A stretch of 32,000 nucleotides of DNA, taken from assembly GCA_017417385.1 (NCBI GenBank), contig JAFPZF010000029.1, positions 43,953 to 75,952 of the forward strand, written 5' to 3'. This document shows, in pieces, positions 616 to 19,661 of this stretch. The notes under the pieces were generated by a model. That model made no database searches. It was not told the DNA's origin and was given only the letters and a program-made list of their open reading frames with translations. Source of the stretch: Bacteroidales bacterium. Its GTDB lineage: Bacteria > Bacteroidota > Bacteroidia > Bacteroidales > Marinilabiliaceae. Within the stretch, counting starts at the first letter, position 1, and every line of letters starts with the position of its first letter. The position numbers and the translations under genes were made by a program.

Positions 616-639
616 ATCTCCTATTGTGTTTTCCCTCTC

Positions 640-2221: not shown

Positions 2222-2365
2222 GGGAGGACAGCAACCATCTCCCTGCTATCCTCTACGACGCTCGTTTTCAGCGCCTATTTTTCCCCGAACACTTTTTTCC
2301 AATATTTTTTGACACGCAATTAAACACTTTTTAGTAACTTCGTACTTAAATTCAAGAACTGAACT

Positions 2366-4036: not shown

Positions 4037-4156
4037 CCTTTGGCGTACTATGACATTCAGAAGATGCTGACTGATAAAAATCCTTCATACTAGCGACTGG
4101 CATCCTGAGAAGGGCGGACGAAGAGAAGAAGAGAAGAAAATTAACTAGGAGAACTG

Positions 4157-4188
4157 ACGGACATTCACTATTGTGGGTGTCCGTTTTT
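4157..4188 (+). terminator. Candidate terminator hairpin for the amylase gene, overlapping the 3' end of the convergent J-domain gene
   Basis: 7-bp stem acggaca (4157-4163) / tgtccgt (4178-4184) with a 14-nt loop, followed by tttt. It lies about 120 nt after the amylase stop. Confidence 0.45.
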
Positions 4189-5226
4189 CCATTGGAAGGA
4201 GTTGATGATCTGGGTCATGTGGTGGGCGTTATGGTCTCCCTGGCGGTAGTTGATGACGATGGTCACCATCTCCGAGTCTCGCTGGACGAAGTAGACCGTC
4301 GCGCAGCAAGTCGGTTTTGAATCTCTGCTATAAGGGGCAAATATGTATGCTGCAACGGTGGCACCGCTCTCGACAGTCGTCATCTCTGGTTTATGTGGCA
4401 ACATCTGAGGGAAATGTTCTACCTCGACAGTGCGTCCTAATTTTCTTGCGACGTCCTTCACCGTCTTGTCGTAGAAGTCGGGACTCAGGCTGGAATGGAT
4501 AGAGCGATAGACGGTCATGTTGCAACTGCCGTAGGAGGCGGCGTCCTTGCCGAAGCCGCTACCGATAAACACGGCGGTGTCGCTCCGGACAGTCATAGTG
4601 TCGCCTGCGATTGTCTTCTTGAGGATGTCTCCACGGAGGGACAGTTCGACGGGGACGGCAAGGGTGAAGCTGTTGTTTATCGAGTAGGTAGTCGTTTTGC
4701 TTTCGGTCATCTCGATGGTGGAGTCGTCTGTGACGTCTTTGGAGTTGCTGAATCTATTGGAGAAGACCTGATAACTGCCGATGATGGCGGCTATGGCGAT
4801 GATGACAATACGACATCTCCTGAAGAACTTGTTGACAGTCTCCTTAGCCTCTTCTGAAGGACCGTCGTATTCCTCGTAATCCTTAGATTCTTCGGTATCA
4901 TTTTTACGTTGTCGATAGCTGCGGCCGGACTGCCTGTATTTCTGTCCCGACCTGCTGTGAGAATGGTCGGTCTGTTGCGGGCGTGGAGTTGGGGTGGGCT
5001 GAGGTTGTGGCTGGGACTCTCGTTTGATAAGGAGCCAGTCGTAGGTGCTGCGGGAGGAAGGGTTGCCGAGGACGTCGTAGGCCTCGTTGATCTGCTGCAT
5101 CATACGTGTGGCATCGGGATCGGGGTTGGCGTCCGGATGCCACTTCTTGCATAGCTCGATGTAGGCATGCTTTATCTCGCGTGAGGAGGCGAAGCGCGAG
5201 ACACCGAGTATTTCGTAGTAGTTCAT
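4168..5226 (-). CDS. J-domain (DnaJ-like) membrane protein with uncharacterised C-terminal domain
   Basis: N-terminal J domain YYEILGV...KKWHPDANPD with the HPD motif. Pro/Gln-rich linker QPQPQPTPTPRPQQ. One TM helix (IVIIAIAAIIGSYQVF). No DnaJ zinc-finger or C-terminal domains. Confidence 0.85.
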   Translation of the reverse strand: MNYYEILGVSRFASSREIKHAYIELCKKWHPDANPDPDATRMMQQINEAYDVLGNPSSRSTYDWLLIKRESQPQPQPTPTPRPQQTDHSHSRSGQKYRQSGRSYRQRKNDTEESKDYEEYDGPSEEAKETVNKFFRRCRIVIIAIAAIIGSYQVFSNRFSNSKDVTDDSTIEMTESKTTTYSINNSFTLAVPVELSLRGDILKKTIAGDTMTVRSDTAVFIGSGFGKDAASYGSCNMTVYRSIHSSLSPDFYDKTVKDVARKLGRTVEVEHFPQMLPHKPEMTTVESGATVAAYIFAPYSRDSKPTCCATVYFVQRDSEMVTIVINYRQGDHNAHHMTQIINSFQWKNGHPQ

Positions 5227-5392: not shown

Positions 5393-6283
5393 ATGAGGAA
5401 AGAAGTCTTTGCAATAGCATTGTCAGTGGTGGCGTTCGGCATGGTATCTTGTCAGCAGGCGCAAGGTGACAGAAAGCAGGAAGCGACAGAGAGCGAGCAG
5501 GCAGCAGCCACGGAGCGGACTGAGGAAGTGAAAGCACAGGTCGCATCGACTGATGAAGCCAGTGGGCTGAAGGTTGAGACGTTGAAGTACAAGAATCCCG
5601 ATCAGAGTCATGTGAGGATTGAGAAGTCAATCGACGTGCCGACGGGTGGCGATGTCAGGCTGGTCAGGAAGATAGGCAAATGGATGGGTGAGCTGATGGA
5701 GGTAGAAGATGTTGACATGACGACGTCGAAGGGACGGGAAGAGTTTGTCAGAAGGGCAGGGGAAGCTCAACTCAAATCTTTCACAAAGGAGTATGAGTCG
5801 GCACTGGGGGACGCAGAATACGAGATTCCGCAGTTCAGTTGTGAGGAGAGTTTGGACATGGCGTATCAGACGGATAGTTACATAGTTTACGTGAGATACT
5901 ACTATGCATATCTTGGCGGGGCACACGGTATGTACTCCACGAGCGCATACACATTCAAGACGAGCGACGGAGTGCTGATGGAGAGTTTCTTCGACAAGGG
6001 GAAGGCGGCAGCGATGCAACAAGTATTATCTGAGGGACTGATAGAATACCTGAAGGACAGGGTTGAAGACCCGGAGGATGACCTTATGGGATACTATTCT
6101 CTGGATGACGGTCTGATACCTCTTCCGGAGGCTCAGCAGGTCGAGCCGACGGACAGCGGGCTTGTAGTCAGATATGACGTGTATCAGTTAGGCCCGTACG
6201 CATTGGGAGAGCCTACGTTCTGCATCCCGTATAAAAAGGCGTGGCCGCTCTTGACGGAGGAGGCAAAGGGGGTGTTGAGGTAG
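5393..6283 (+). CDS. DUF3298/DUF4163-type lipoprotein
   Basis: Lipoprotein signal MRKEVFAIALSVVAFGMVSC, so I prefer the start at 5393 over the ORF-track 5369. The YYYAYLGGAHGMYS motif and the C-terminal YQLGPYALGEPTFCIPY are typical of DUF3298. Confidence 0.7.
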   Translation: MRKEVFAIALSVVAFGMVSCQQAQGDRKQEATESEQAAATERTEEVKAQVASTDEASGLKVETLKYKNPDQSHVRIEKSIDVPTGGDVRLVRKIGKWMGELMEVEDVDMTTSKGREEFVRRAGEAQLKSFTKEYESALGDAEYEIPQFSCEESLDMAYQTDSYIVYVRYYYAYLGGAHGMYSTSAYTFKTSDGVLMESFFDKGKAAAMQQVLSEGLIEYLKDRVEDPEDDLMGYYSLDDGLIPLPEAQQVEPTDSGLVVRYDVYQLGPYALGEPTFCIPYKKAWPLLTEEAKGVLR

Positions 6284-6355
6284 AAAGGGTAGGAGAAGAG
6301 GAGAAGAGAAGAGAAGGAGGGCTATCATTAATTGTCTTTTAAAACATACAGTACA

Positions 6356-7168
6356 ATGGATATTTTGTCAATACTTTTAGATAGTGTTCTTGGGCTGAAC
6401 TTATCGCCAAGAATGATGGTGTTTGCTGTCGTATTGTTCATTGCGATATATTACATCATAAAGGCGATATTATGGTTTAGTAATCGGTTGCGTGATATGT
6501 ATGAGCGTTGTGAAGCGGTAAATAAGAAACCCAGCTTAAAGAACTTTTTTACTTTGCCTGAGTTTTATGATGTTGTAACTACAAGCCAAAGGGGGACAGA
6601 AGGTGAACGTGAATTGATATCTGTCATGATAGAGAGCGGTATAAAATCTACAGCGATATACCATGATTTGCTGGTTCCCCAGCCAAACGGGGCGACTTCC
6701 CAAGTAGACATAGTCGTCATGACAAAAGTAGGATTAGTTGTTGTCGAGGTGAAAGACCATGGAGGGCTGATATATGGTAATGGTAAACAATCGAGATGGA
6801 CGTCTGTATATAATCCTTCAGCAAAGTATCAGTTCTACAATCCGTTCATGCAGAATGAGACTCATATAAGGGTGTTGAAGCAGCAATTGGGCTCGACAAT
6901 ACCGATGTATTCGCTTGTGGTATTCACAAGAGCGAAAATAAAGGACGTCAGTTTAATACCTTCGGAATCATATCTTGCTACAAAAGACGGTTTTATGCAG
7001 GCACTCAAGACAATAGAACAAAGTCATCAGGTGTATAACTATGGGGACGCATGGAGTATTGCAACGAAGTTGAAGCAGATGTCTGATAATGGAGGGAAAC
7101 AAGACCTACAAAGTCGGCACGTGGAGAGGGTTATTGATTATACTGGGGAAAATAGGGTTTTCAGATAG
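6356..7168 (+). CDS. NERD (nuclease-related domain) protein with N-terminal transmembrane helix
   Basis: NERD pattern GTEGERELISVM...QVDIVVMTKVGLVVVEVKDHGGLIYGNGKQSRWT...YNPFMQNETHIRVLKQQL. TM segment MMVFAVVLFIAIYYIIKAILWF. The ATG at 6356 is preferred to the TTG at 6332. The gene is visibly AT-richer than the gene upstream. Confidence 0.75.
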   Translation: MDILSILLDSVLGLNLSPRMMVFAVVLFIAIYYIIKAILWFSNRLRDMYERCEAVNKKPSLKNFFTLPEFYDVVTTSQRGTEGERELISVMIESGIKSTAIYHDLLVPQPNGATSQVDIVVMTKVGLVVVEVKDHGGLIYGNGKQSRWTSVYNPSAKYQFYNPFMQNETHIRVLKQQLGSTIPMYSLVVFTRAKIKDVSLIPSESYLATKDGFMQALKTIEQSHQVYNYGDAWSIATKLKQMSDNGGKQDLQSRHVERVIDYTGENRVFR

Positions 7169-7209
7169 GGAATTGAATAACACACAATGTAACAGGATTG
7201 CTCTTCCTT

Positions 7210-7248
7210 GCGGCTAATAAACCGCAGAATTTGCGGATTATTAGCCGC
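7210..7248. terminator. Long AT-rich inverted repeat (16 bp paired, one A-A mismatch), possible NERD-gene terminator or protein-binding palindrome
   Basis: gcggctaataa-a-ccgca gaatt tgcgg-a-ttattagccgc, read directly. It lies 42 nt after the NERD stop. There is no U-tract on either strand, so terminator function is uncertain. Confidence 0.45.
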
Positions 7249-7278
7249 AAATATGTATTCCAATCTTGGGGAACGTCG

Positions 7279-7312
7279 GTAAGGGAGAGTGTCTGACGAA
7301 AAGGCAGAGGGA
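7279..7312. repeat. Left copy of the 34-bp direct repeat flanking the R-M island
   Basis: gtaagggagagtgtctgacgaaaaggcagaggga is 32/34 identical to 17451-17484, with a 24-nt perfect core gtgtctgacgaaaaggcagaggga. Confidence 0.85.
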
Positions 7313-7701
7313 GGGGAATACTCAGTAAGCTACGCTCTCGCTTCTTGACGCTAAAGAGAGAAAAGGGGAGCAGAGGATATATCTTTTCACAATTTTCTTT
7401 ATCTTCGCATGTCGGTTTTGCTGAAACCTGCGCATTTAGTGGGTCGGGGGCAGCCGACAAACAGTTTTTGGGAAGCGTTTGCTACACGCTCTGTTTTGGC
7501 TCTTCGGAACGTAGGAAATTTCGACATAGTTAGTCAACAACTTTGCGACAGCAGACGCCGGGGTATGGTATGAAAGCCATTCCCACAAGCGTGCGGAGGG
7601 CAAAATTAGGGTGTCATGACAAAACACGGAGCATGGATCCCAACGTATCGACCATATAACAATGAGATTTGCAGACCAGTATCTCGATGTAATTTAGGCA
7701 A

Positions 7702-9483
7702 ATGACTGAGAAGATAAATATACGCAAACTCGAGGCGGACCTTTGGGAGTCGGCAGACTTGCTTCGGGCAGGAAGTAAACTGACATCGAGCCAATACTGT
7801 ATGCCGGTACTGGCATTATTGTTTCTAAGATACGCATACAGTCGCTTCAAGATGGTTGAAGCTGAATTGCTGAAGAATCGTCCAAGCCGTGGCGGTCGCG
7901 TGATGCCTGTTGAAGTAAGTGACTTTGCAGCTAAGAGTGCGCTCTACCTACCTCGAGAGGCTCAGTTTGACTATCTGGTGAATCTATCGGATGACCAACC
8001 TTTGGGGGAAGCTGTCAATCGCGCTATGACATTGGTCGAAGAACAAAGCGAACAGTTGACAGGTATTCTGCCTAAGTCATACACGATGTTCAGCGATGAG
8101 CTATTGCGCGAGTTGCTCCGAATCTTTAACAACAAGACACTTGACGAAATCGGTGGTGATGTCATAGGTCGTATTTATGAGTACTTTCTCAGTAAGTTTG
8201 CCAAGGCAGTAGCATCAGACGATGGTGTGTTCTTCACCCCCAAGTCATTGGTAAAGATGCTCGTCAATGTACTAGAGCCAGAGCAAGGCGTAATGCTTGA
8301 TCCTGCTTGTGGTTCAGGAGGTATGTTCGTTCAAACTGGCGACTTTGTGAACCAGTCGGGTCTCAATGCCAATACACAGATGACCTTCTACGGTCAGGAG
8401 AAGGTGGAGTATAATGCCCAGCTCTGTCTGATGAACATGGCAGTTCATGGATTGAATGGTCGCATCATCAGTGGTGACGAAGCCAACTCCTTCTATCATG
8501 ACGCACACAACCTTGCGGGGAAGTGCGACTACGTGATGGCGAATCCCCCATTCAATGTAGATAAAGTGAAGTCGGAATCAGCATCTGCTGCCGGTCGTTT
8601 GCCATTCGGCTTGCCAGGTGTTAATGCTAAGACAAAAGAGATTGGTAATGCCAACTATCTCTGGATTTCATACTTCTATGCCTACCTCAACGACCATGGT
8701 CGTGCGGGATTCGTCATGGCATCATCGGCAACAGATAGCGCCAACAAAGATCGTGACATCCGCGAAAAGCTTGTTCTTACAGGTGATGTAGATGTCATGG
8801 TTAGTGTAGGCAACAACTTCTTCTACACACTCTCGCTCCCTTGCTCGCTATGGTTCTTTGACAAGGCAAAGCGTCTGGAGAATAAGAATCGAGTACTGTT
8901 CATTGATGCCCGCAACTATTATACCGTTGTTGACCGTACTCTTAATGAATGGTCAGAATGGCAGTTGAAAAACTTGCAAGCTATAGTCCATCTGTATCGT
9001 GGCGAGAAAGAGAAATACCAGCAACTGATTTCCGAATATAAGACCGTCCTTGGTGCTACAACTGTTGCTTCGGCACAGGAAGCACTTGACAAGCAAAAGG
9101 TAACAGCTAAAGAAACACTAGCTGCTGCCCAACGCAAAGATAAGAAACGCATTGAGGCAGAACAGGATGCCCTAATTGACGAACTTGAAGACCTTCTTGA
9201 AACGGCTCGCCAGTTTGAATGGCTCACCTCCAAGTTTGGTCTTGAAGGTGAATATCAGGACATTCTTGGCCTCTGTAAGATTGCCACCATTGACGAAATT
9301 AGTGAGAAGAACTATAGTCTTACCCCCGGTGCATACGTCGGTGTTGCTGAAGTCGAGGATGATGGCGTTGACTTCCGTGAGCGTATGAATGAAATCCATA
9401 GCGAACTCGCCTCACTCAACAAAGAAGCCAATGTGCTAATGAGTGAGATAATGAAGGAATGGGAAGGCCTAAATATGAAGTAA
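7702..9483 (+). CDS. hsdM: Type I restriction-modification system, methyltransferase subunit M
   Basis: 593 aa. HsdM N-terminal pattern LWESADLLRAG...YCMPVLALLFLRY. AdoMet motif DPACGSGGMF. Catalytic NPPFN motif. Confidence 0.95.
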   Translation: MTEKINIRKLEADLWESADLLRAGSKLTSSQYCMPVLALLFLRYAYSRFKMVEAELLKNRPSRGGRVMPVEVSDFAAKSALYLPREAQFDYLVNLSDDQPLGEAVNRAMTLVEEQSEQLTGILPKSYTMFSDELLRELLRIFNNKTLDEIGGDVIGRIYEYFLSKFAKAVASDDGVFFTPKSLVKMLVNVLEPEQGVMLDPACGSGGMFVQTGDFVNQSGLNANTQMTFYGQEKVEYNAQLCLMNMAVHGLNGRIISGDEANSFYHDAHNLAGKCDYVMANPPFNVDKVKSESASAAGRLPFGLPGVNAKTKEIGNANYLWISYFYAYLNDHGRAGFVMASSATDSANKDRDIREKLVLTGDVDVMVSVGNNFFYTLSLPCSLWFFDKAKRLENKNRVLFIDARNYYTVVDRTLNEWSEWQLKNLQAIVHLYRGEKEKYQQLISEYKTVLGATTVASAQEALDKQKVTAKETLAAAQRKDKKRIEAEQDALIDELEDLLETARQFEWLTSKFGLEGEYQDILGLCKIATIDEISEKNYSLTPGAYVGVAEVEDDGVDFRERMNEIHSELASLNKEANVLMSEIMKEWEGLNMK

Positions 9484-9486
9484 GTT

Positions 9487-10020
9487 ATGGCAGACGTAAA
9501 ACCAATTGTGTCAACTGATATTTCAGCAATGGGTGCAGTAGTTGGAGATTTGATGACTGACCTCCGCCAAATCATTGACGAAGCGCGGAGCCATGTGGCA
9601 TCTACAGCCAACTATGAGCTTACCATGATGTACTGGCATATTGGCGAGCGAATCAACCGTGACGTGCTTGGAAATGAACGTGCTACATACGGAAAACAAA
9701 TTGTCGCAACAGTGGCGCGACAATTACAAACATGGTATGGCAGCAAGGGCTTTGAGGAGAGAACAATTAGGAGAATGGTACAATTTGCGCAAGAATTCCC
9801 TGATTGGCAAATTGTGTCACCGCTGGTGTCAAAATTGTCATGGTCTCATTTCCTGACTATTATGACACTGAAAGACCCTCTTCAACGAGAGTTTTATCTC
9901 ACAATGGCTGCAAACGAGAGATGGAGTAAACGCCAAGGGCTAAAAGGCTTGTATAGCGAGAAGGACTTGTTGCAAAAGCTAAATGGGAAAATGAAAGAAA
10001 GGAGGATGAGGTATGAGTGA
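9487..10020 (+). CDS. DUF1016 (YhcG-like) N-terminal domain protein, truncated and lacking the PD-(D/E)XK nuclease domain
   Basis: 177 aa. ANYELTMMYWHIGERINRDVLGNERATYGKQIV...LSWSHFLTIMTLKDPLQREFYLTMAANERWSKRQ matches the DUF1016 N-terminal region as I recall it. The ORF ends about 150-200 aa short of the full-length family size. Confidence 0.7.
   Translation: MADVKPIVSTDISAMGAVVGDLMTDLRQIIDEARSHVASTANYELTMMYWHIGERINRDVLGNERATYGKQIVATVARQLQTWYGSKGFEERTIRRMVQFAQEFPDWQIVSPLVSKLSWSHFLTIMTLKDPLQREFYLTMAANERWSKRQGLKGLYSEKDLLQKLNGKMKERRMRYE
9997..10020. repeat. Left copy of the 24-bp direct repeat bracketing fic (contains AGGAGG and the fic ATG)
   Basis: gaaaggaggatgaggtatgagtga is 22/24 identical to 10995-11018. 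Confidence 0.85.
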
Positions 10021-11014
10021 AATGACAGATAAGTTTAAGAAGGCTGACGAGAACAACCGTTTGCTGTCAGCATACAGACCTTTACCGCCCGAAACACTAA
10101 AATCGTTAAGAGAGTACTACCGCGTAGGGCTCACTTATACGAGTAATGCCCTTGAAGGCAATAGCCTGACAGAGTCAGAAACCAAAGTAGTCATTGAGGA
10201 CGGATTGACGATTGAGGGTAAGCCCCTGCGCGACCATTACGAGGCAGTAGGTCATGCCAAGGCCTACGACTATATCTACCAGATTACCGAAAAGGAAGGT
10301 CTTGAAGAAGAGGACATTCTGGCTCTTCATCGCCTGTTCTATCAGCAGATAGATGCCGAAAAGGCAGGAAAATATCGTGACGTAAAGGTTTATATCAGCG
10401 GCAGCCGTTATGCGGTATCGGCAGTATCTAAGATTCCTGCTGAGATGCAGAAACTTGTTAAATGGTACAATGACAACGAGAAGAAGTTGCACCCAATAGA
10501 GTTGGCGGCTACGTTGCATCAGCGTTTTGTCTTCATTCATCCCTTTGTGGATGGCAACGGGCGTGTGGCGCGTCTGCTGATGAATCTCGCTTTGTTGCGC
10601 AACGGCTTTACCATTGCCATTATTCCTGCTGTTCTGCGTCATGAATACATCTATTCGTTAGAGGCAGCCCATACTCGTCCAGAGGTCTTTGTTGACTTTA
10701 TTGCCGACCGTGTGATAGCCACCCAACTTGACCTGCTCAGGCTGATGCGGGAAGACGATGATACTGTAAGTGATACTGTAAATGATACTGTAAAAGCAGT
10801 TGCGCCCCTGCTTTCAAAGACCGAACAGACCGTCTTGAATGCGATAAGTACGTACCCCAATTATTCTTACGAGAAGCTTGCCACATACAGTCAGCTTTCT
10901 CGTCCTACTATCGCCCGTACCATCAAAGCCCTCCAAAGCCGCAAGTTCATCCGTCGCATAGGCTCTGATAAAACTGGCCATTGGGAAGTTATCGGAAAGG
11001 AGGATGAGGCATGA
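10013..11014 (+). CDS. fic: Fic family protein (predicted AMP-transferase) with N-terminal auto-inhibitory motif and C-terminal winged-helix domain
   Basis: Canonical Fic motif HPFVDGNGRVARLL. Inhibitory (S/T)xxxE(G/N) motif in TSNALEGN. The C-terminal segment LSRPTIARTIKALQSRKFIRRIG looks like a wHTH. Its start overlaps the upstream stop by 8 nt and its stop overlaps the hsdS start (ATGA). Confidence 0.9.
   Translation: MSEMTDKFKKADENNRLLSAYRPLPPETLKSLREYYRVGLTYTSNALEGNSLTESETKVVIEDGLTIEGKPLRDHYEAVGHAKAYDYIYQITEKEGLEEEDILALHRLFYQQIDAEKAGKYRDVKVYISGSRYAVSAVSKIPAEMQKLVKWYNDNEKKLHPIELAATLHQRFVFIHPFVDGNGRVARLLMNLALLRNGFTIAIIPAVLRHEYIYSLEAAHTRPEVFVDFIADRVIATQLDLLRLMREDDDTVSDTVNDTVKAVAPLLSKTEQTVLNAISTYPNYSYEKLATYSQLSRPTIARTIKALQSRKFIRRIGSDKTGHWEVIGKEDEA
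10760..10795. repeat. In-frame 12-bp tandem repeat x3 inside fic (encodes DTVS-DTVN-DTVK linker)
   Basis: gatactgtaagt gatactgtaaat gatactgtaaaa, read directly. It lies between the Fic core and the wHTH domain. Confidence 0.85.
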
Positions 11015-11018
11015 GCGA
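10995..11018. repeat. Right copy of the 24-bp direct repeat bracketing fic (contains AGGAGG and the hsdS ATG)
   Basis: gaaaggaggatgaggcatgagcga is 22/24 identical to 9997-10020. Confidence 0.85.
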
Positions 11019-12138
11019 GTTTTTGTTGAGTGAAGTCTGTGAACTCATTGTTGATTGTCCTCATACAACAGCTAACGATGAAGGTAAAGGGTTCCCATTA
11101 GTACGTACTCCCAACATTGGTAAGGGAAGACTGGTCTATGATGGAATGCATCGTGTTTGTGAGGATGTTTACAACAAGAGGAATGCCCGTGCCATTCCGC
11201 AAGAGAATGATTTAATCTTTGCCCGTGAGGCTACGGCTGGCAATGTCGCATTGATTCAAAAAGGAGAAAAGGTTTGTCTTGGGCAAAGGACTGTACTTAT
11301 TAGGCCTAATCAAGAAATGGTTAATCCAGCATTCCTGACCTATTTCCTTTTAGCGCCTAAACAGCAATATAATCTCTTGAGTACTGCAAATGGTGCAACA
11401 GTAGCTCATGTCAACCTTCCAACCATAAGAAACTTGAAGATTGACTTGCCAGAACTACCTACTCAGCACCGCATTGCCACTATCCTCTCTCGCTACGACT
11501 CTTTGATAGAGAACTATCAAAAGCAGATAAAGCTATTGGAGGAAGCAGCACAGCGACTCTATAAGGAATGGTTCGTTGACCTCCACTTCCCCGGCCACGA
11601 AAACACCAAGATTGTCGATGGTGTGCCTGAGGGGTGGGAGAAGAAGAGCGTAACAGATGTTCTCGAAATAAAATACGGCAAAGACCATAAACTATTGAAA
11701 GATGGAACAAATCCCGTATATGGAACAGGAGGTGTTATGCGCTATGTAGAAAAGAGCCTATGCACAGGTGAATCAGTACTGATACCTCGTAAGGGTTCCC
11801 TAAATAATATTTTGCTGGTTGACGGGACATTCTGGACAATAGACACAATGTTCTATTCCATACCGAAGAAAGATAATGTTGCAAAGATTGTATATTTCTA
11901 TCTCAAAGGAGTTGATATGTATTCTTTCAATATTGGAGCCGCAGTACCAAGTATGACGGTTAATATCTTATCAGGTATGAAACTCCTTATTCCCAAAGAT
12001 GATATAAGAAAAGAATTTGAGAAGATTGTTTCTATATATTTTATACGTGTGCAATCTCTCCAATCTCAAATCCGTCTCCTCACCGAAGCTCGTGACCGCT
12101 TGCTTCCGAAGCTGATGAGCGGCGAGATAGAGGTATAA
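11011..12138 (+). CDS. hsdS: Type I restriction-modification system, specificity subunit S (two target-recognition domains)
   Basis: 375 aa. Central conserved helix IATILSRYDSLIENYQKQIKLLEEAAQRLYKEWFVDLHFPGHE. C-terminal conserved helix QSQIRLLTEARDRLLPKLMSGEI. Two variable TRD-sized blocks. Confidence 0.9.
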   Translation: MSEFLLSEVCELIVDCPHTTANDEGKGFPLVRTPNIGKGRLVYDGMHRVCEDVYNKRNARAIPQENDLIFAREATAGNVALIQKGEKVCLGQRTVLIRPNQEMVNPAFLTYFLLAPKQQYNLLSTANGATVAHVNLPTIRNLKIDLPELPTQHRIATILSRYDSLIENYQKQIKLLEEAAQRLYKEWFVDLHFPGHENTKIVDGVPEGWEKKSVTDVLEIKYGKDHKLLKDGTNPVYGTGGVMRYVEKSLCTGESVLIPRKGSLNNILLVDGTFWTIDTMFYSIPKKDNVAKIVYFYLKGVDMYSFNIGAAVPSMTVNILSGMKLLIPKDDIRKEFEKIVSIYFIRVQSLQSQIRLLTEARDRLLPKLMSGEIEV

Positions 12139-12169
12139 TAACGAAATAATAAACATAAAAGGCAAAGAT

Positions 12170-13531
12170 ATGCGTAGAATTTCTATTAACAATTTTCGCT
12201 GCTACAAGAATAAATCGATGGATTTCCGTCGTGGTATAAATTTGCTGATAGGCGATAACTCAGTCGGTAAAACATCGCTGTTACGAGCTTGTAATCTTGT
12301 CATGAATGCTTTCTTTTGCGGATACAGTGACGAGAATACAAAATGGAAAAGTGCAGAGGACGATGATTTCCGAGAAATTAAGAATGATGATGTTGCAACT
12401 GATGAATTGCCTATCAATATAGCATTTGAACTAGATGAGACTGATTGCCCTGATATTACATTGGCAGATGGTTCTGTAAGAGCTCTTCATGAAAGCAAGC
12501 CACTTACGGGAGAACATGGGTACCCAGAATTAAGCATTGAAAAGAAATCAAAGAAGAATGCACGTAATCTTATTACAGGGCTTATGCCCTTGAGAACTTA
12601 CGCATCATTACTTCAAAGGAATTCTCATGTCATTATAGATGGTACTGCTTTGCAGCGTAATGCTTTGCCTCTTTTTGCTTGCTTTACTACAGAGGACATT
12701 CATACAGTCAGGAAGTTTGATAAAACTCAGTTTAAGAAGTATCCCCAGAAGTCTTCTTTTGGATACTTTGAGAACTTCGACTGTAAGGGATTGCTGGATT
12801 GCTGGCTAAAACGTCTGCTCGTGCTGAAAGAAGCTAAAAAGGGCGAACAGGAAATAGAATGTGTAAGGAAGGCTGTTGTTAGTGCATTGGGACCTGATGG
12901 ATGCAATATCATAGTGGATATGGAGGTTAGAGACAACGACAATGAAGTTTTCTTTATTTACTGTGATGGTAGAGAGGTTCGCTCAGACTTTCTGTCTGAT
13001 GGTTATCGCCGCATCGTCAGCATTGTCATCGACCTTGCCTTTCGCTGTGCATTACTGAATAAAGTGATGTATGGTGACGAGGCTTACAAACTGACTCACG
13101 GTACTGCTGTCATTGACGAGATTGACGAGCATCTGCACCCTGCACTACAAGTGCGTATATTAAAAGCCTTGCATCAGACATTTCCAAAGATTCAGTTTAT
13201 TGTTAGTACTCATGCGCCATTGGTGATGTCTTCTGTAGAAAACACACCTGAGAACGTGGTGTATAAACTGGAATACAAGGATGGCATATATAGTCACAAA
13301 GAGCTTAATACTTATGGATTGGATGCGTCGACTATTATGCAGGTCTATATGGACCAGACACCTCGTGATTTAGCTGTTGACGAAGAGATTAAGTATATTG
13401 AATCGTTGATCGATGTTGAAAAATACTCTGAGGCTAGAGTTGCATTAGAAAAAATGCAGGAGCGACCAGGAAGTGATGCAAATCCAGAGCTGTCCAGAAT
13501 AGAGGCTACTCTATCTTTCTACGAAGATTGA
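12170..13531 (+). CDS. ABC/AAA_15-21-type ATPase, PtuA-like (Septu-type partner of the downstream HNH protein)
   Basis: 453 aa. Walker A GDNSVGKTS. ABC-signature-like LSDGYRRIVS. Walker B AVIDEIDEHLHP. H-loop STHAP. It is the most AT-rich part of the operon. Confidence 0.75.
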   Translation: MRRISINNFRCYKNKSMDFRRGINLLIGDNSVGKTSLLRACNLVMNAFFCGYSDENTKWKSAEDDDFREIKNDDVATDELPINIAFELDETDCPDITLADGSVRALHESKPLTGEHGYPELSIEKKSKKNARNLITGLMPLRTYASLLQRNSHVIIDGTALQRNALPLFACFTTEDIHTVRKFDKTQFKKYPQKSSFGYFENFDCKGLLDCWLKRLLVLKEAKKGEQEIECVRKAVVSALGPDGCNIIVDMEVRDNDNEVFFIYCDGREVRSDFLSDGYRRIVSIVIDLAFRCALLNKVMYGDEAYKLTHGTAVIDEIDEHLHPALQVRILKALHQTFPKIQFIVSTHAPLVMSSVENTPENVVYKLEYKDGIYSHKELNTYGLDASTIMQVYMDQTPRDLAVDEEIKYIESLIDVEKYSEARVALEKMQERPGSDANPELSRIEATLSFYED

Positions 13532-13533
13532 TA

Positions 13534-14208
13534 ATGATACTTATTCAAAAGAAATCAGAGCCAAAAGAGTGGCTGAAATATAGAAGTACTCCTGGTGTTG
13601 ATTATCATTCAATCCCAGAGCTTGTTGATTCCCTCTTAGAAGAGCAGGGCTACATTTGTGCTTATTGTATGCGTCGTATTCCTTGCAAGGACAGACTATA
13701 CAAGAAAGATGGTACGACCTATGTCCTTACAGATGAAGATCATCGCGTTGAGCATATTCAGAGTCGCGAAAAACATGAGGATAAGAAATTGGATTATTCT
13801 AACATGGTGATTTGTTGCCCTGGTCATATAGGGAGTGAGGAACATTGTGATCGATTAAAGGGTAGTAAGGATATTTCTTTTTCTCCACTTGATCCTGCTT
13901 TTATAAAAACTATTTCTTATAAAACAGATGGTGAAATTGTATCTTCAAATGTACAATACAATAAAGAAATCAATGAGGTACTGAATCTCAACACTCCAAT
14001 TCTTAAAGAGAATAGGAGAAATACTTGGGAGGCTGTAAAAAAAGAATTGATCGCTAGTGAAGGAAAGAAGCCTTGGAACAAGACTGTTCTTTCAAAATAT
14101 ATAGACAAATACAGTTCAAAACATAAAAAAGAAGAGAAGTTAAGCTTGATTCCGTATTGCGGTGTGGTATTGTTCTTTCTTCAAAAGAAGCTAAAACAGA
14201 TGTTATAA
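13534..14208 (+). CDS. HNH-type endonuclease of the TIGR02646 / PtuB-like family
   Basis: Cys/His pattern GYICAYCMRRI...DHRVEHIQSRE...NMVICCPG...EEHCDRLKGSKDISFSP matches the TIGR02646 family as I remember it (CxYC, EH, HCDxxKG). The ATG at 13534 lies 2 nt after the ATPase stop. The ORF-track alternative is the TTG at 13528, which overlaps that stop. Confidence 0.7.
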   Translation: MILIQKKSEPKEWLKYRSTPGVDYHSIPELVDSLLEEQGYICAYCMRRIPCKDRLYKKDGTTYVLTDEDHRVEHIQSREKHEDKKLDYSNMVICCPGHIGSEEHCDRLKGSKDISFSPLDPAFIKTISYKTDGEIVSSNVQYNKEINEVLNLNTPILKENRRNTWEAVKKELIASEGKKPWNKTVLSKYIDKYSSKHKKEEKLSLIPYCGVVLFFLQKKLKQML

Positions 14209-14227
14209 ATCAATATCCTGGATTATT

Positions 14228-16987
14228 ATGGCGAAGGACTATAGCGAAGACCTGCTGATACAGAAATCGACAGCCGAACTCTTGGAAAAAGAGCTTGGCT
14301 GGAAGTCTGTGTATGCTTTCGACAATGAGGTACTGGGAGAACAAGGTACGCTTGGACGCAAGACACAGAGCGAGGTCGTATTAACGCGTCATCTTCGCAT
14401 AGTCCTAAAACGTCTGAATCCATGGATGACAGACAAGCAAATGACAGAAGCCATCGAGCGCATGACAGGCTATATGAGCTCGCAGACGTTGATGCAGATC
14501 AACGAGGAGAAGTATGGTTACATTCGTGATGGCGTGCCTGTCACTCGTCTGAAACCTAATGGCGAGACGGAGCAGGTACGCGCCAAGGTTGTGGACTTTG
14601 CCAATGTCGATAACAACGAGTTTATTGCAGTCAGAGAACTTTGGATAAAGGGGGCAATCCACAAGCGAAGGGCAGATGTGGTTGGTTTTGTGAATGGACT
14701 TCCGCTCATCTTCATCGAACTGAAGAATCACGACCAGGACATACGGAATGCCTATACCGACAATTATCGCGACTATCTTGATACCATACCTCATTTGTTC
14801 CACCACAATGCCATGATCATGTTGAGCAATGGCATGGAGAGCCGTGTGGGTACTGTGGGCTCTAAGTGGGAGTTCTTCCACGAATGGAAACGACTGACGG
14901 AGCAAGAGGCAGGCAATATCGAACTGCCAACGATGTTGCGAGGCATCTGCAAGAAAAAGAACTTTTTGGATTTGCTCGAAAACTTCATTCTCTACGACCA
15001 TAGTGGAGGACATACGGCAAAGATATTAGCTCGCAATCATCAGTATCTGGGGGTGAATCAAGCTATAGAGATGTACCGAAATCGTCAGTATCTAAACGGT
15101 AAGTTGGGCGTGTTCTGGCATACGCAGGGGAGCGGCAAAAGCTACTCCATGCTGTTTCTCTCACAGAAGATTCGCCGTAAGTTTGAGGGTTCGCCCACAT
15201 TCCTTGTGCTGACCGATCGCGATGAACTGAACAAGCAAATAAGCGACACGTTTGAGAACTGCGGACTGTTGGGCAATGTAAAGGCAAAGAAGTTCATCGC
15301 CAGTAGTGGCGAGGACTTGAAATCTAAGTTGAAAGGCAATCCGTCATTCATCTTCTCGCTCATTCAGAAATTCAACGATCCGAAGGCTGAACCTATTTAT
15401 CCGGATCATGACATCATCGTGATGAGCGACGAGGCTCACCGCACTCAAAACGGCATATTTGCTGATAACCTAATGCACTTGCTGCCGACGGCCCATCGCA
15501 TTGGTTTTACAGGTACACCATTGCTTTCTAACGATAACATCACAGCCCGCACATTCGGTGGCTACGTGAGTATCTACGACTTCAAACGGGCTGTGGAAGA
15601 TAAGGCAACGGTGCCCCTTTACTATGAGAATCGGGGTGAGAAACTGCAAGACCTGAAGAATCCAGAAATTAACGATGAGATTGCAGCAGCGCTGGAACAA
15701 GCAGGCGAACTAGATGCCTCGCAACTAGCAAAACTGGAACGGGAGTTTGCCAAGGAGGTGCATCTGCTGACGGCCGAGAAAAGATTGCGAGTAGTGGCAC
15801 AGGACTTCGTGCGTCACTATAGCGATTTGTGGACTGCGGGCAAGGCGATGTTCGTGTGTTATAACAAGGTGACATGCGTCCGTATGTTCAACTATGTGCA
15901 GGAGTACTGGCAGAAGGAGATCAAGGCGTTGGAAGAATCCATTGCCAAGAGCACTTCGCAACAGGAGGCGCAGGAGAAGCGGCGTAAGCTGGAATGGATG
16001 CGTGAGACTGACATGGCGGTAGTCGTTTCGCAAGAGCAGAATGAGATACAGACGTTTCAGAAGTGGGGACTCGACATCAGGCCACATCGTGAGCGGATGG
16101 AGAATGAGGAACTGGACAAGGCTTTCAAGGCTGACGACTCACGATTGCGAGTGGTGTTTGTCTGTGCCATGTGGCTGACTGGTTTCGATGTAAAGACACT
16201 CTCCTGCCTCTACATCGACAAGCCCATGAAGGCGCACACGCTGATGCAGACCATTGCCCGTGCTAACCGAGTGTCGGAAGGAAAGACAAACGGCTTGATT
16301 ATCGACTACATAGGCATCGTGAAAGCCCTTCGCCAGGCGTTGGCCGACTATACAGCTAACTCGGAAGATGGCATAGCAGGCAATGATCCGACCATTGATA
16401 AGAAGGAACTCATCAACCATGTGCTGGAGGCGATAGCTGGTACAACAGTTTTCCTGAAAGACCACAGTATAGAACTTAATGACCTGATTAAAGCAGAGAG
16501 CTTCGGGAAACTGTCGCTGCTGAAGGCGGCGGCGAATGCGATGTGCGAGACGGCAGAAGTCAGGAAATCATACTGCACGTTTGCCACTACACTGTTGAAG
16601 CTATGGAAATACCTCGACCGTGAGGATATAAAACCCGAGATGAAACAGCAGAAGGATGCCATTGAAGCCATATACAAGGAGTTGCAGCAGAAGCGCAGAC
16701 ATGCTGACATCTCAGATTTGAGTGTGGCGATCAATGACATTGTCAATGAGCATGTCGAGTTGGATCCCGAAGCAACTATGATGGTAGCAGAGTCACGACG
16801 TTTCGACATTAGTGGCATCGATTTCGATTTGCTCCGTCGTGAGTTCGCCAAGAGTAAAGAAAAGAATCTTGTCTTGAAAGACATACAGGAACTGCTTCAA
16901 GAGCGTATAGCCCAGATGTTGGCGCAGAATCCATCGCGTATCAACTTTTACGAGAAGTACCGGGAAATCATTCACGATTACAATTAG
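14228..16987 (+). CDS. hsdR: Type I restriction enzyme R subunit, truncated by an in-frame TAG at 16985-16987
   Basis: 919 aa. N-terminal PD-(D/E)xK region ADVVGFVNGLPLIFIELKN. SF2 helicase motifs HTQGSGKSYSM, VMSDEAHRTQ (DEAH) and GFTGTP. It ends at ...FYEKYREIIHDYN*, and the same frame continues with HsdR C-terminal sequence. Confidence 0.9.
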   Translation: MAKDYSEDLLIQKSTAELLEKELGWKSVYAFDNEVLGEQGTLGRKTQSEVVLTRHLRIVLKRLNPWMTDKQMTEAIERMTGYMSSQTLMQINEEKYGYIRDGVPVTRLKPNGETEQVRAKVVDFANVDNNEFIAVRELWIKGAIHKRRADVVGFVNGLPLIFIELKNHDQDIRNAYTDNYRDYLDTIPHLFHHNAMIMLSNGMESRVGTVGSKWEFFHEWKRLTEQEAGNIELPTMLRGICKKKNFLDLLENFILYDHSGGHTAKILARNHQYLGVNQAIEMYRNRQYLNGKLGVFWHTQGSGKSYSMLFLSQKIRRKFEGSPTFLVLTDRDELNKQISDTFENCGLLGNVKAKKFIASSGEDLKSKLKGNPSFIFSLIQKFNDPKAEPIYPDHDIIVMSDEAHRTQNGIFADNLMHLLPTAHRIGFTGTPLLSNDNITARTFGGYVSIYDFKRAVEDKATVPLYYENRGEKLQDLKNPEINDEIAAALEQAGELDASQLAKLEREFAKEVHLLTAEKRLRVVAQDFVRHYSDLWTAGKAMFVCYNKVTCVRMFNYVQEYWQKEIKALEESIAKSTSQQEAQEKRRKLEWMRETDMAVVVSQEQNEIQTFQKWGLDIRPHRERMENEELDKAFKADDSRLRVVFVCAMWLTGFDVKTLSCLYIDKPMKAHTLMQTIARANRVSEGKTNGLIIDYIGIVKALRQALADYTANSEDGIAGNDPTIDKKELINHVLEAIAGTTVFLKDHSIELNDLIKAESFGKLSLLKAAANAMCETAEVRKSYCTFATTLLKLWKYLDREDIKPEMKQQKDAIEAIYKELQQKRRHADISDLSVAINDIVNEHVELDPEATMMVAESRRFDISGIDFDLLRREFAKSKEKNLVLKDIQELLQERIAQMLAQNPSRINFYEKYREIIHDYN

Positions 16988-17377
16988 GAACAGAATCGTG
17001 CCACAATTGAAAAGACCTTCGAGGATTTGATGCATCTGTCTCAATCTCTCAGCGAAGAAGAGAAACGTTATGTACGAGAAGGATTCAAGAGTGATGAAGA
17101 ACTCTCGCTCTATGACCTCCTATTGAAAGACAGTCTATCAAGGGCAGAAGTCAAGAAGCTGAAGGATGTAGCCATAGAGTTGCTTGCCAAAATTAAGGGA
17201 CAGTTGGCAGGTATGGATCATCCATTTGACAAGCCAACGACTCGTGCTACTCTTAGCAATACCATCCGTGATGTTTTGTGGCAGGAACTTCCAGCGAGTT
17301 ATAGTGAAGAAAGCATAAACTACTATCGCGACACCATCTACAATTATGTTAGTCAAAGATATGGTGGTGTTGCATAA
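16988..17377 (+). pseudogene. hsdR: Detached C-terminal (DUF3387-like) region of hsdR, in the same frame as 14228-16987 (ORF-track ORF 17027-17377)
   Basis: 14228 and 17027 are in the same frame. Read-through gives ...DYN*EQNRATIEKTFEDLMHLSQSLSEEEKRYVREGFKSDEELSLYDLL..., which is the usual HsdR C-terminal tail. Combined length would be about 1049 aa, normal for HsdR. Confidence 0.8.
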
Positions 17378-17429
17378 CTTTCTTCATAGTTCAGCATTGG
17401 AGTGAATCGTAGGTATATCCTATCGTAGT

Positions 17430-17459
17430 CCCCCTTAAGGGACACGGACTGTAAGGGGG
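17430..17459. other. Stem-loop overlapping the right island repeat
   Basis: 8-bp stem ccccctta (17430-17437) / taaggggg (17452-17459) with a 14-nt loop. There is no U-tract. A G7 run at 17455-17461 replaces gggagag of the left repeat copy. Confidence 0.5.
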
Positions 17460-17484
17460 GGTGTCTGACGAAAAGGCAGAGGGA
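17451..17484. repeat. Right copy of the 34-bp direct repeat flanking the R-M island
   Basis: gtaagggggggtgtctgacgaaaaggcagaggga is 32/34 identical to 7279-7312. Confidence 0.85.
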
Positions 17485-17603
17485 TGAGAGAAATATGACA
17501 TGAAAGAAGAGGAAGAAAAGGAGAGTAGAGTGACAAGATGGCAGACGTGAGGGGGTGGCACGGGATTTGACAAGAGGAGAGTCAAAGTAAAAAATATAAT
17601 ACT

Positions 17604-19661
17604 ATGGCATCAGGCAAGATAGGTGTATCCACCAAAGACCTTTTCCCGATTATCAAGAAGTTCTTGTACTCGGATCATGACATTTTCCTACGTGAGATAG
17701 TCTCGAACGCTGTCGACGCATGTCAGAAGCTGAAGGTAGTCTCGACGAGCAGCGACTTTAATGGCGAGCTGGGCGACCTGAAGGTAGAGGTCAAGCTAGA
17801 CCCGAAGGAGAAGACACTGACCGTCAGTGATAATGGTATCGGTATGACGGGCGACGAGGTCGAGAAGTATATCAACCAGATAGCATTCTCGGGTGCAGAG
17901 GAGTTCCTCGAGAAGCACAAGAATGACGGAGCGACGATAATCGGTCACTTCGGTATGGGTTTCTACTCGGCGTTCATGGTATCTGACAAGGTCGAGATAG
18001 TCACCAAGTCTTACAAGGAGGGAGCTCAGGCAGTGCACTGGAGCTGCACGGGCGACCCGGAGTACACACTCGAGGAAGCCAAGAAGGAGACGAGGGGCAC
18101 GGACATCATCATGCACATCAGCGAGGAGGAGAAGGAGTTCCTGGAGAAGAACAGGATCGAGACGCTGCTCCAGAAGTACTGCAAGTTCCTGCCTATACCT
18201 GTCATCTTCGGTAAGAAGACCGAGTGGAAGGACGGTAAGGAGCAGGACACTGACGAGGACAACCAGATCAACGACACGACGCCAGCATGGGTGAAGAAGC
18301 CTGCGGACCTGAAGGATGAGGACTACGAGGCGTTCTACAACAAGCTGTATCCGGGGGCTGACAAGCCACTCTTCAACATACACCTGAACGTCGACTATCC
18401 GTTCACCTTGACGGGTATACTCTATTTCCCGAAGATCAAGAACAACATCGACGTCAACAGGAACAAGATACAGCTCTACTGCAACCAGGTCTTCGTGACC
18501 GACTCGGTAGAGGGCATTGTGCCGGACTTCCTGACGCTCCTGCATGGCGTCATCGACTCGCCGGACATCCCGCTGAACGTCTCGAGGTCTTACCTCCAGA
18601 GTGACAGCAACGTCAAGAAGATATCGAGCCACATCACGAAGAAGGTAGCAGACAGGCTGGAGGAGATATTCAAGAACGAGAGGCCCACATTCGAGGAGAA
18701 GTGGGACGACCTGAAGATCTTCATCGAGTATGGTATCTTGACGGATGAGAAGTTTGCGGAGAGGAGTGATAAGTTCGCACTCTTGAAGAACGTCGACGGG
18801 AAGTACTTCACATTCGAGGAGTACAAGAAGCTGATAGAGAAGGAGCAGACGGACAAGGACGGCAACCTCATCTATCTATATGCTACGGACAAGGCGACGC
18901 AGTACACGTTCATCGAGGCTGCGAAGGCGAAGGGCTATGACGTCTTGATGATGGACGGACAGCTCGACACGCCATTCATGAACCAGAAGGAGCAGAAGTG
19001 GGAGAAGAGCAGGTTCACGAGGGTTGACGCCGACGTCATCGACAAGCTGATAGTCAAGGACAACGCGCCGGAGCTGACATTGACGACGAACGAGAAGAGC
19101 GACCTCGAGGAGGTATTCCGCAGCCAGACGCCGACGACGGACAGCAAGAAGACGTACACCGTCTCTGTCGAGGCGCTGGGCGAGGATGCGCTGCCAGTCA
19201 TCGTCACGCAGAACGAGTGGATGAGGCGAATGAAGGAGATGAGCAACCTGCAGGCAGGCATGTCGTTCTACGGCGAGATGCCGGACTCGTACAATATCGT
19301 CGTCAACGGCAACCATCCGCTGGTCAACAAGGTCCTCGGCGGTCTGCAGCCGGTCATCAAGGAAAAGATAGAACCGATACGCGAGGAGATCTCGAAGCTG
19401 GAGAGCAGGAGGGACGAGCTGAACAAGGAGAAGAGCGGGAAGAAGGATGAGGACGTGCCGCAGAGCGTCAAGGACGAGCTGGAGAGCGTCAACAGCAGCC
19501 TGAACGAGAAGAGGAGCGAGAGGACATCGGCCCTCACGGCGTTCGGCAAGGACAACGAGCTTGTCTCTCAGCTGATAGACCTGGCACTGCTCTCGAACAA
19601 CATGCTGACGGGTGCTGACCTGACGAAGTTCATCAAGAGGAGCATCTCGATGATGAAGTAG
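17604..19661 (+). CDS. htpG: Molecular chaperone HtpG (Hsp90 family)
   Basis: 685 aa. GHKL ATPase motifs LREIVSNAVDA, DNGIGM and GHFGMGFYSAFMV. Full-length Hsp90 architecture. Confidence 0.97.
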   Translation: MASGKIGVSTKDLFPIIKKFLYSDHDIFLREIVSNAVDACQKLKVVSTSSDFNGELGDLKVEVKLDPKEKTLTVSDNGIGMTGDEVEKYINQIAFSGAEEFLEKHKNDGATIIGHFGMGFYSAFMVSDKVEIVTKSYKEGAQAVHWSCTGDPEYTLEEAKKETRGTDIIMHISEEEKEFLEKNRIETLLQKYCKFLPIPVIFGKKTEWKDGKEQDTDEDNQINDTTPAWVKKPADLKDEDYEAFYNKLYPGADKPLFNIHLNVDYPFTLTGILYFPKIKNNIDVNRNKIQLYCNQVFVTDSVEGIVPDFLTLLHGVIDSPDIPLNVSRSYLQSDSNVKKISSHITKKVADRLEEIFKNERPTFEEKWDDLKIFIEYGILTDEKFAERSDKFALLKNVDGKYFTFEEYKKLIEKEQTDKDGNLIYLYATDKATQYTFIEAAKAKGYDVLMMDGQLDTPFMNQKEQKWEKSRFTRVDADVIDKLIVKDNAPELTLTTNEKSDLEEVFRSQTPTTDSKKTYTVSVEALGEDALPVIVTQNEWMRRMKEMSNLQAGMSFYGEMPDSYNIVVNGNHPLVNKVLGGLQPVIKEKIEPIREEISKLESRRDELNKEKSGKKDEDVPQSVKDELESVNSSLNEKRSERTSALTAFGKDNELVSQLIDLALLSNNMLTGADLTKFIKRSISMMK

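Follow-up and report, generated by a model that had tools for sequence, protein, structure and literature searches.

A Type I restriction-modification operon of a Bacteroidales bacterium with a DUF1016 remnant, a Fic gene and a Septu pair in two probable cargo slots

What are a DUF1016 gene, a Fic gene and an ATPase-nuclease pair doing between the hsdM, hsdS and hsdR genes of a Type I restriction-modification (R-M) operon, and do they act with the R-M system or beside it? This question is raised by a block of seven genes in a window of 32,000 nt (the whole stretch of DNA analysed here; GenBank assembly GCA_017417385.1, contig JAFPZF010000029.1, of a Bacteroidales bacterium). A preliminary description had given the gene order, all on the + strand, and had suggested a functionally integrated defence unit, in which the additional genes serve as guards or as second-line effectors, or else replace a decaying restriction arm. 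The reading preferred here, to which a probability of roughly 0.78 is assigned, is a Type I R-M operon, from a family frequent among Bacteroidales of gut and rumen, that carries independent anti-phage cassettes at two fixed slots, one between hsdM and hsdS (slot 1) and one between hsdS and hsdR (slot 2). The open reading frame (ORF) listing and direct reading confirmed the order, strand and coordinates of the genes:

7702-9483, + strand: hsdM, 593 aa, Type I methyltransferase subunit
9487-10020, + strand: DUF1016_N ORF, 177 aa, DUF1016 (YhcG / PDC-S02) remnant
10013-11014, + strand: fic, 333 aa, Fic domain and C-terminal MarR-like winged helix
11011-12138, + strand: hsdS, 375 aa, specificity subunit
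12170-13531, + strand: ptuA, 453 aa, Septu ABC-type ATPase
13534-14208, + strand: ptuB, 224 aa from ATG, Septu HNH nuclease
14228-17377, + strand: hsdR, 1049 codons, restriction/translocase subunit

Domains were assigned by profile hidden Markov model searches with Pfam, PADLOC and NCBIfam models, and every gene name proposed before was upheld. The junctions between the seven genes measure, in order, +3, -8, -4, +31, +2 and +19 nt, exactly the lengths reported earlier. A terminator-like hairpin had not been noticed within the block, and the hairpin scan found none in the intergenic gaps; two weak 6-bp matches on the + strand lie inside hsdM and fic. Counted over both strands of positions 6000-19000, hairpins were modestly more frequent than expected by chance (15 versus 9.3 +/- 3.0 in shuffles).

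The two slots were recognized by comparison with related loci. A scan with PtuA, performed with one genome per species, yielded 24 close loci (these, like other loci and contigs, are designated L with a number below), in which PtuA is 57-89% identical. In ten of these (L001, L009, L010, L011, L014, L018, L019, L021, L022 and L023) ptuA and ptuB lie between hsdS and hsdR of the same hsd family, with HsdM 72-86% and HsdR 75-82% identical; the nearest species-level genome locus is that of Segatella bryantii (L001; PtuA 89% identical). All seven genes point the same way and their slot architecture is shared by 10 of 24 other species-level genomes, so that the association of the cargo with hsd genes goes beyond chance and the genes are not random neighbours, in agreement with the earlier supposition. 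The content of the hsdM-hsdS slot differs between these loci: a full-length DUF1016 gene of 362 aa is present in L009 and L011, deleted forms are present in L001 (78 aa), L010 (147 aa) and L021 (126 aa), and a different Fic, about 25% identical to that of the window, is found in L018, L019, L022 and L023. Extra cargo in the hsdS-hsdR slot comprises AbiU in L021 (605 bits) and, in another hsd family, a second Fic in L026. At L009:12017-15674 and L010:12017-15846 the hsdR 5' end has a duplicate of 82 codons, which is followed by a two-gene insertion, coding for a REase-like protein of 704/764 aa and an unknown protein of 411/416 aa, and then by the complete hsdR, while in L001 fragments of the hsdR 5' end and the hsdS 3' end lie upstream of ptuA.

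Metagenome contigs added further arrangements. The variant in L114 reads HTH, hsdM, DUF1016 (229 aa), hsdS, an unknown 343-aa gene, hsdR and AbiH; in another, hsdS and a 229-aa DUF1016 remnant are preceded by RhuM and a 771-aa gene; a third is hsdM-Fic-hsdS. The most crowded slot 1 is that of L122 (positions 1-4611), where DUF1016 (378 aa), a Fic 94% identical to that of the window, a 35-aa stub of the hsdS 5' end, DUF1016_N (139 aa) and DUF1016 (362 aa) are piled up and followed by a 196-aa ORF with an hsdS-like start, which is cut by the end of the contig. All cargo in the related loci is co-oriented, with short gaps or overlaps.

The block itself is real and no assembly artefact, since independent metagenome contigs from at least six samples match it at 99.8-100% identity in look-ups with exact proteins. 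Contigs L127, L128 and L133 span the upstream genes, hsdM and the DUF1016 remnant into fic; L130 and L131 span hsdM, the remnant, fic, hsdS and the start of ptuA; and L123-L126 jointly span the end of fic, hsdS, ptuA, ptuB and hsdR into htpG or further. Judged by their names, the samples look like re-assembled ruminant-gut studies. The G+C content at third codon positions (GC3) is 0.31-0.60 inside the block, lowest in hsdS and ptuAB, and 0.62-0.83 in the flanking genes; the composition of the block is thus foreign and mosaic.

The cargo of slot 2 is a bona fide Septu pair, as the earlier assignment of an ATPase and an HNH protein had implied. PtuA matches Pfam AAA_15/AAA_21 and, with 741 bits over residues 1-451 of 453, PADLOC model PDLC00272, its Walker A (GDNSVGKT) and Walker B (AVIDE) motifs are intact, and its structural relative is PtuA in the Protein Data Bank (PDB; 8ee4, 110 bits). 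The adjacent PtuB matches PDLC00322 with 234 bits, has an intact HRVEH motif and is related to PtuB in PDB entry 8ee7. Both proteins stay below the NCBIfam cut-offs (PtuA 150 versus 500 bits; PtuB 79 versus 150 bits; TIGR02646 45 versus 52 bits). An alternative TTG start of ptuB at 13528 would give a -4 overlap with ptuA; the PADLOC alignment of PtuB begins at the ATG, residue 3 of the ORF read from TTG. In the architecture of an adjacent ABC ATPase and HNH nuclease the pair resembles Septu type I and the PtuAB of retron Eco7 (type I-A), from which it differs in falling under the NCBIfam Ec78 equivalog cut-offs and in lacking a reverse transcriptase and msr/msd RNA. Since no reverse transcriptase ORF was found in or next to the block and Rfam gave no match in the window, PtuAB here is Septu and not a retron of type I-A (Eco7/Ec78). 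Characterised PtuAB proteins of Septu and of retron Eco7 are reported to cleave tRNA-Tyr.

The same cassette is also found outside hsd operons, and its occurrence as a solo pair of genes gives indirect support to a putative anti-phage activity of the two genes as a unit. With PtuA 64-77% identical, PtuAB stands alone among housekeeping genes in at least 12 of the 24 loci, its neighbours being genes for an AMP-binding enzyme, acyltransferases, TauE, fucose pyrophosphorylase, an ABC transporter and NAD(P)HX dehydratase as well as LpxK and an AIR-synthase-related protein. These solo cassettes carry 140-320 nt of upstream DNA of their own, with the Bacteroidetes-type promoter motif TAnnTTTG in 5 of 13 solo loci (L005, L006, L008, L012 and L013/L016); upstream of embedded ptuA there are mostly 18-31 nt, and 100-150 nt in L001 and L021. 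A neighbour-joining tree without support values shows solo and embedded PtuA interleaved, the embedded ones forming at least three groups, and embedded copies have neither an extra domain nor a different length in comparison with solo ones. In Prevotella pectinovora (L004, 9900-12100) a solo PtuAB is flanked by about 27 nt of an hsdS 3' end and about 45 nt of an hsdR 5' end, with scores reached by 0 of 200 shuffles on either side. Either the cassette left an hsd operon there or the surrounding hsd genes were deleted. No comparable stubs were found in the other twelve solo loci, and the idea that all solo cassettes escaped from hsd loci was rejected, L004 being the only significant case of 13.

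These distributions bear on the suggestion that PtuAB and/or Fic are kept latent by the Hsd complex, or monitor it, and fire when a phage anti-restriction protein disables it, as is the case for PrrC and EcoprrI. Such a role would agree with the fixed position of PtuAB, which at least three PtuA subclades place immediately between hsdS and hsdR of one and the same hsd family, and with a tight co-expression, which is likely; moreover, the related ABC-ATPase defences PrrC, PARIS and Gabija are triggered by anti-restriction proteins, as discussed by Payne, Hughes, Fineran and Jackson 2024 (bioRxiv 10.1101/2024.01.29.577857). PrrC and the Campylobacter rlo genes are also alike in placing an ABC-ATPase-type effector gene inside a Type I hsd operon. 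However, PrrC is a fused anticodon nuclease, almost exclusively embedded and regulated by Hsd, while the effector of PtuAB is a separate HNH protein and its clade is often solo. A PrrC-like guard family would occur (almost) only inside hsd operons, and the solo PtuAB loci, together with the solo Fic relatives in L029-L033, do not conform to this. The absence of a specific extra domain or length difference in embedded copies and the unrelated cargo in the same slot of sister loci argue in the same direction, as does the report of Septu as a stand-alone two-gene system of which only 0.7% is embedded in Hma. No support was found for a guard or second-line effector role of Fic or PtuAB, relatives of both occurring without hsd genes, and this explanation is considered unlikely. 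The notion of a functionally integrated unit, for which the tight coupling of the genes had been taken as a sign, is left unsupported by the solo relatives, the interleaved tree, the lack of an extra domain and the differing cargo in sister loci. Since relatives of PtuAB and Fic occur solo and the same slots hold other cargo elsewhere, the modules look autonomous and swappable.

Slot 1 contains the traces of an older occupant. The DUF1016 ORF, already taken for a remnant before, matches DUF1016_N only (PF17761, 142 bits; PADLOC PDC-S02, 190 bits), and Pfam gave no match to the PD-(D/E)XK nuclease domain (YhcG_C, PF06250) in this ORF. When its DNA was aligned with the 362-aa orthologues that L009 and L011 carry in this slot, two internal deletions that excise the PD-(D/E)XK domain were revealed, which bears out the status of the ORF as a remnant; its last 16 codons correspond to the native 3' end read in another frame. 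A 229-aa form with the second deletion only and the same tail (...LQKLNGKMKERRMRYE) is common in metagenomes, where it directly precedes hsdS with the same -8 overlap; the copy in the window is therefore derived from that form by a second step. Of the 120 DUF1016 homologues closest to it, 110 lack the nuclease domain. Internal deletions are found in 47, whose lengths take at least 18 different values and whose reading frames still extend into the junction with the gene that follows; loss of the nuclease domain is thus recurrent in this lineage. Toxicity, a function of the N-domain or coupling could account for recurrent loss with retention of the N-domain. The argument that translational coupling selected for in-frame deletions is weak, because two of three frames are open to the hsdS start and the remnant in the window uses an alternative frame.

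The second gene of slot 1 codes for a Fic protein with a Fic domain (Pfam, 93 bits) and a MarR-like winged helix-turn-helix, which also matches the PADLOC models SoFic (119 bits) and PDC-S04 (117 bits). The active site HPFVDGNGRVAR at residues 176-187 fits the motif HxFx(D/E)GNGRxxR, and an N-terminal inhibitory motif, SNALEG, is present. Its best PDB relatives are class II Fic proteins of the FICD type (125 bits). SoFic and FICD-like class II Fic proteins share with it the HPFxDGNGRxxR core, the N-terminal (S/T)xxxE(G/N) helix and the C-terminal winged helix; in contrast to SoFic, the core of the protein in the window is closest to FICD-type proteins, and against the NCBIfam SoFic equivalog NF046030 it scores 28.9 bits where 550 are required, so that it does not qualify as a SoFic orthologue. 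Sofic has been reported as an AMPylating abortive-infection toxin, and the Fic protein of the window is, by its family and context, probably an AMP-transferase defence toxin. Its clade is very abundant (6,759 matches at E<=1e-20 among 8,000 candidates scored, the top 120 all at least 80% identical) and occupies the hsdM-hsdS slot of at least three hsd families. Relatives 84-89% identical occur alone, without hsd genes (L029-L033), in settings that are defence-island-like, beside GmrSD, HNH and methylase genes, or beside a giant helicase. Exact-protein look-ups of the Fic of the window and of HtpG gave no match. Fic codon 154 (10472-10474) codes for Asp in the window and for Gly in the population contigs L130 and L131 (D154G). 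Several assemblies break inside fic, probably since the Fic family is abundant and conserved across strains.

How fic entered the slot is suggested by a 37-nt direct repeat that brackets it:

9984-10020, + strand: junction repeat copy 1, native DUF1016 3' end plus the ATGAGTGA start context with AAGGAGG, preceding fic
10982-11018, + strand: junction repeat copy 2, fic 3' end plus hsdS start

The two copies are 78% identical with the exact core GAAAGGAGGATGAGG, and copy 1 is almost the same as the native junction of DUF1016 and hsdS in L001, L009 and L114. The junction contains the motif AAGGAGG-N-(A/G)AGGN-ATGA, which in the relatives occurs once per locus and always just before hsdS, whichever gene lies upstream (L001, L009-L011, L018-L023 and L114-L120); the window has two such sites (9999-10016 and 10997-11014) and the pile-up of L122 has four. 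The Shine-Dalgarno-like AAGGAGG is strong and lies 8 nt before the hsdS start and here before the fic start as well. It is conserved whatever gene is upstream, though it falls inside the coding end of that gene. Shine-Dalgarno-led initiation is rare in Bacteroidales, and the conserved AAGGAGG is thus unexpected. From the duplicated fic junction, the hsd fragments in L001 and the hsdR 5' duplicate in L009 and L010 we infer that cargo was gained and swapped by recombination at conserved gene-end junctions.

With a reservation for the interrupted hsdR, the three hsd genes belong to a Type I R-M system by their domains. HsdM matches Pfam N6_Mtase (251 bits), HsdM_N and PADLOC MTase_I (899 bits), with motif I (DPACGSG) and motif IV (NPPF) intact. 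HsdS has two target-recognition domains (TRD1 and TRD2), with two stretches of Pfam Methylase_S and a match to PADLOC Specificity_I (272 bits) over residues 1-375. HsdR comprises HSDR_N, SWI2_SNF2 and T1R_D3 (Pfam), followed by T1RH-like_C, and matches NCBIfam TIGR00348 (475 bits) and PADLOC REase_I (487 bits); the nuclease motif D...ELK, GSGKS and DEAH are all intact. These genes are mosaic themselves. TRD1 (10995-11637, compared with L001:8280-8922) is 97% identical to S. bryantii hsdS, with 82-90% for the rest of the block, and TRD2 (about 11648-12054) is unrelated, without a match in the L001 locus, a contrast that indicates TRD swapping. Additionally, a segment of about 200 nt in hsdM (9018-9219) has no DNA similarity to the otherwise 90% identical gene of L001, and the middle of hsdR (14830-16900) is 58-80% identical as against 85-94% at both ends.

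Within hsdR, the in-frame stop codon pointed out previously is indeed present:

16985-16987, + strand: in-frame TAG at hsdR codon 920 (direct reading)

All domains and motifs of a full-length HsdR are encoded, and in this sequence the TAG cuts off the last ~130 aa, T1RH-like_C lying beyond it. The TAG differs by a single C-to-T change (T at 16985) from CAG (Gln). Homologues have CAG/CAA (Gln), AAA/AAG (Lys) or GCT (Ala) at this codon, the closest ones Gln (CAG or CAA). About 129-130 codons past the TAG stay in frame up to a TAA and are 91-93% identical to homologues, without any further defect. A protein search with the read-through sequence retrieved a 100% identical, intact HsdR of 1049 aa; the four contigs that carry it all have CAG at codon 920 and are 99.97-99.99% identical to the window (1-4 base differences over 5-15.7 kb). 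Because these near-identical contigs keep CAG and intact downstream codons, the TAG is a private C-to-T variant or a base-call error and does not point to decay of the restriction arm. Should the base call be correct, HsdR of this variant would be truncated and the variant restriction-deficient. Recoding of TAG was rejected, as many flanking housekeeping genes use TAG as an ordinary stop. The GC3 of hsdR is 0.60 before the TAG and 0.40 after it.

A locus in decay, in which the R-M system is dying and the cargo replaces restriction or hitch-hikes in a pseudogenising island, would account for the loss of the C-terminal 130 aa of HsdR, the deleted DUF1016 nuclease domain, the missing XRE regulator described below and the disruption of the neighbouring NERD-domain gene in one sample. 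It is nevertheless very unlikely in view of the intact HsdR in the four contigs, the integrity of all other catalytic motifs and the 99.8-100% conservation of the block over at least six samples. Moreover, hsdR is intact in all nine complete related loci with the same cargo, and the DUF1016 nuclease is widely missing from loci that appear functional in other respects. The earlier alternative of cargo as a substitute for a failing restriction arm was therefore abandoned on the grounds of the CAG codons, the intact downstream codons and the intact hsdR of the relatives.

The upstream region of the operon differs from that of its relatives. A 67-70-aa XRE/HTH_3 regulator lies directly upstream of hsdM in L001, L009, L010, L011, L018 and L114 (for example L001:5981-6184, 67-aa XRE, and L114:320-532, HTH_3). 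No counterpart was found upstream of hsdM in the window, where 533 nt of unrelated non-coding DNA (7169-7701) take its place; homology to L001 begins only 12 nt before the hsdM ATG, and the native regulator and promoter of the operon may have been lost. A scan for TAnnTTTG gave no motif in the gaps of the window or in positions 7169-7701; a sigma-70 promoter scan had been set aside as uninformative for Bacteroidota in favour of this motif. With gaps of -8 to +31 nt there is no room for promoters or terminators between the genes.

The spacing also bears on the possibility of a passive genomic sink, in which cargo landed where insertion was tolerated, without a benefit from co-expression and possibly with independent transcription. 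The recombination footprints and the mosaic GC3 show repeated insertion or exchange, as a sink would, and the idea has been discussed in the literature (Payne et al. 2024). But the gaps contain no promoter-like motif, in contrast to the TAnnTTTG of 5 of 13 solo cassettes, the start/stop overlaps and the conserved AAGGAGG junction are kept whatever the cargo, and cargo is strictly co-oriented in every related locus, all of which makes a mere sink very unlikely.

The block is further bracketed by a direct repeat of 39 nt:

7279-7317, + strand: left copy, 385 nt before hsdM
17451-17489, + strand: right copy, 74 nt past the hsdR stop

The copies agree at 90% of positions and share an exact core of 24 nt, for which 100 shuffles gave 0 matches, and an att-like site or a dispersed repeat are the candidates for its nature. 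No integrase or tRNA gene was found near it, and tRNA and Rfam scans of the window gave no matches. An exact scan of metagenome contigs returned no empty site, an HtpG-anchored scan returned only relatives of at most 83% identity with unrelated upstream DNA, and the repeat is absent from all 113 loci examined. Repeats flank L001 too; they measure about 180 nt and are unrelated in sequence to the 39-nt repeat. Just upstream of the block lies a NERD-domain gene (6332-7168; GC 0.40), which is absent from related hsd loci and may be a separate defence-type gene. A strong hairpin (7208-7250) is located at its end, and in a single population contig (L129) a deletion of 79 nt splits the gene.

The preferred reading of an operon with independent cassettes would imply the following course of events. 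Slot 1 would first have held a DUF1016 nuclease gene, from which two internal deletions in this lineage stripped the nuclease domain, leaving a translated spacer; the gene for Fic with its winged helix would then have been gained by recombination, which duplicated the ~37-nt junction in front of hsdS, and slot 2 would hold the intact Septu PtuA/PtuB pair. A single transcript would probably start upstream of hsdM and run across all genes, some of which would probably be translationally coupled via the ATGA and ATGAGTGA overlaps and the AAGGAGG 8 nt before fic and hsdS. HsdM2S would methylate host DNA and, together with HsdR, cut unmodified DNA; PtuAB would act as an ATPase-controlled HNH nuclease leading to abortive infection, and Fic as an auto-inhibited AMP-transferase toxin. 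Each module would act on its own, the benefit of embedding being co-inheritance, co-expression and layered defence and not an obligate coupling.

Three points weigh against this reading. That PtuAB is repeatedly associated with a single slot of a single hsd family, across at least three PtuA subclades, could be due to functional synergy as well as to ease of recombination. The score of Fic lies far below the SoFic equivalog cut-off (29 versus 550 bits), its putative defence role following from family and context. Finally, expression of the block is predicted, with TAnnTTTG absent from 7169-7701 upstream of hsdM and the XRE regulator missing.

The organization agrees well with systems described before. 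Payne et al. 2024 reported defence genes nested within operons of the Hma, BREX, DISARM and Type I R-M systems, 96.7% of them co-oriented, and discussed PrrC-type backup and co-regulation as possible benefits of embedding. Clusters that contain genes nested in BREX, DISARM or Type I R-M systems were the basis of the PADLOC PDC models, and two of these models, PDC-S02 and PDC-S04, match the DUF1016 and Fic ORFs of the window; Septu is the paradigm embedded system, in Hma operons. The cargo of the window likewise lies on the same strand between core genes of a multi-gene defence system, as it does in the relatives. In contrast to that survey, two fixed slots and junction duplications can be read here directly from the sequences. 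DUF1016 between Type I core genes has also been noted earlier in the literature. In an island of enteropathogenic Escherichia coli (EPEC), a seven-ORF Type I R-M operon carries DarTG2, an autonomous defence pair, between hsdS and hsdR, a site proposed by the authors as a recombination hotspot, with which the exchange of cargo at gene-end junctions proposed here is consistent. That operon has a small transcriptional regulator upstream of hsdM, like the relatives of the window and unlike the window itself; furthermore, the cargo here is Septu, the second slot between hsdM and hsdS is filled too and the host belongs to the Bacteroidales. None of the papers searched was found to describe an hsd operon that combines a DUF1016 remnant with Fic and Septu. 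Type I R-M operons are known for this habit, of which the locus is a further example in a new combination; it reveals no new mechanism.

The repeated placement of Septu between hsdS and hsdR, and of Fic or DUF1016 between hsdM and hsdS, may have more behind it than ease of recombination; if PtuAB and/or Fic were wired to the Hsd complex after all, an unlikely case, the operon would be a restriction system with built-in guards. Annotation pipelines that bar intervening genes could split or miss systems of this kind. As it stands, the block, verified in a population, shows cleanly how Type I R-M operons of gut Bacteroidales collect and exchange defence cassettes at two slots, with readable footprints in the duplicated fic junction, the hsd stubs on a solo Septu cassette and the stepwise loss of the DUF1016 nuclease, and it can help in planning experiments on layered defence under common regulation in Prevotellaceae.

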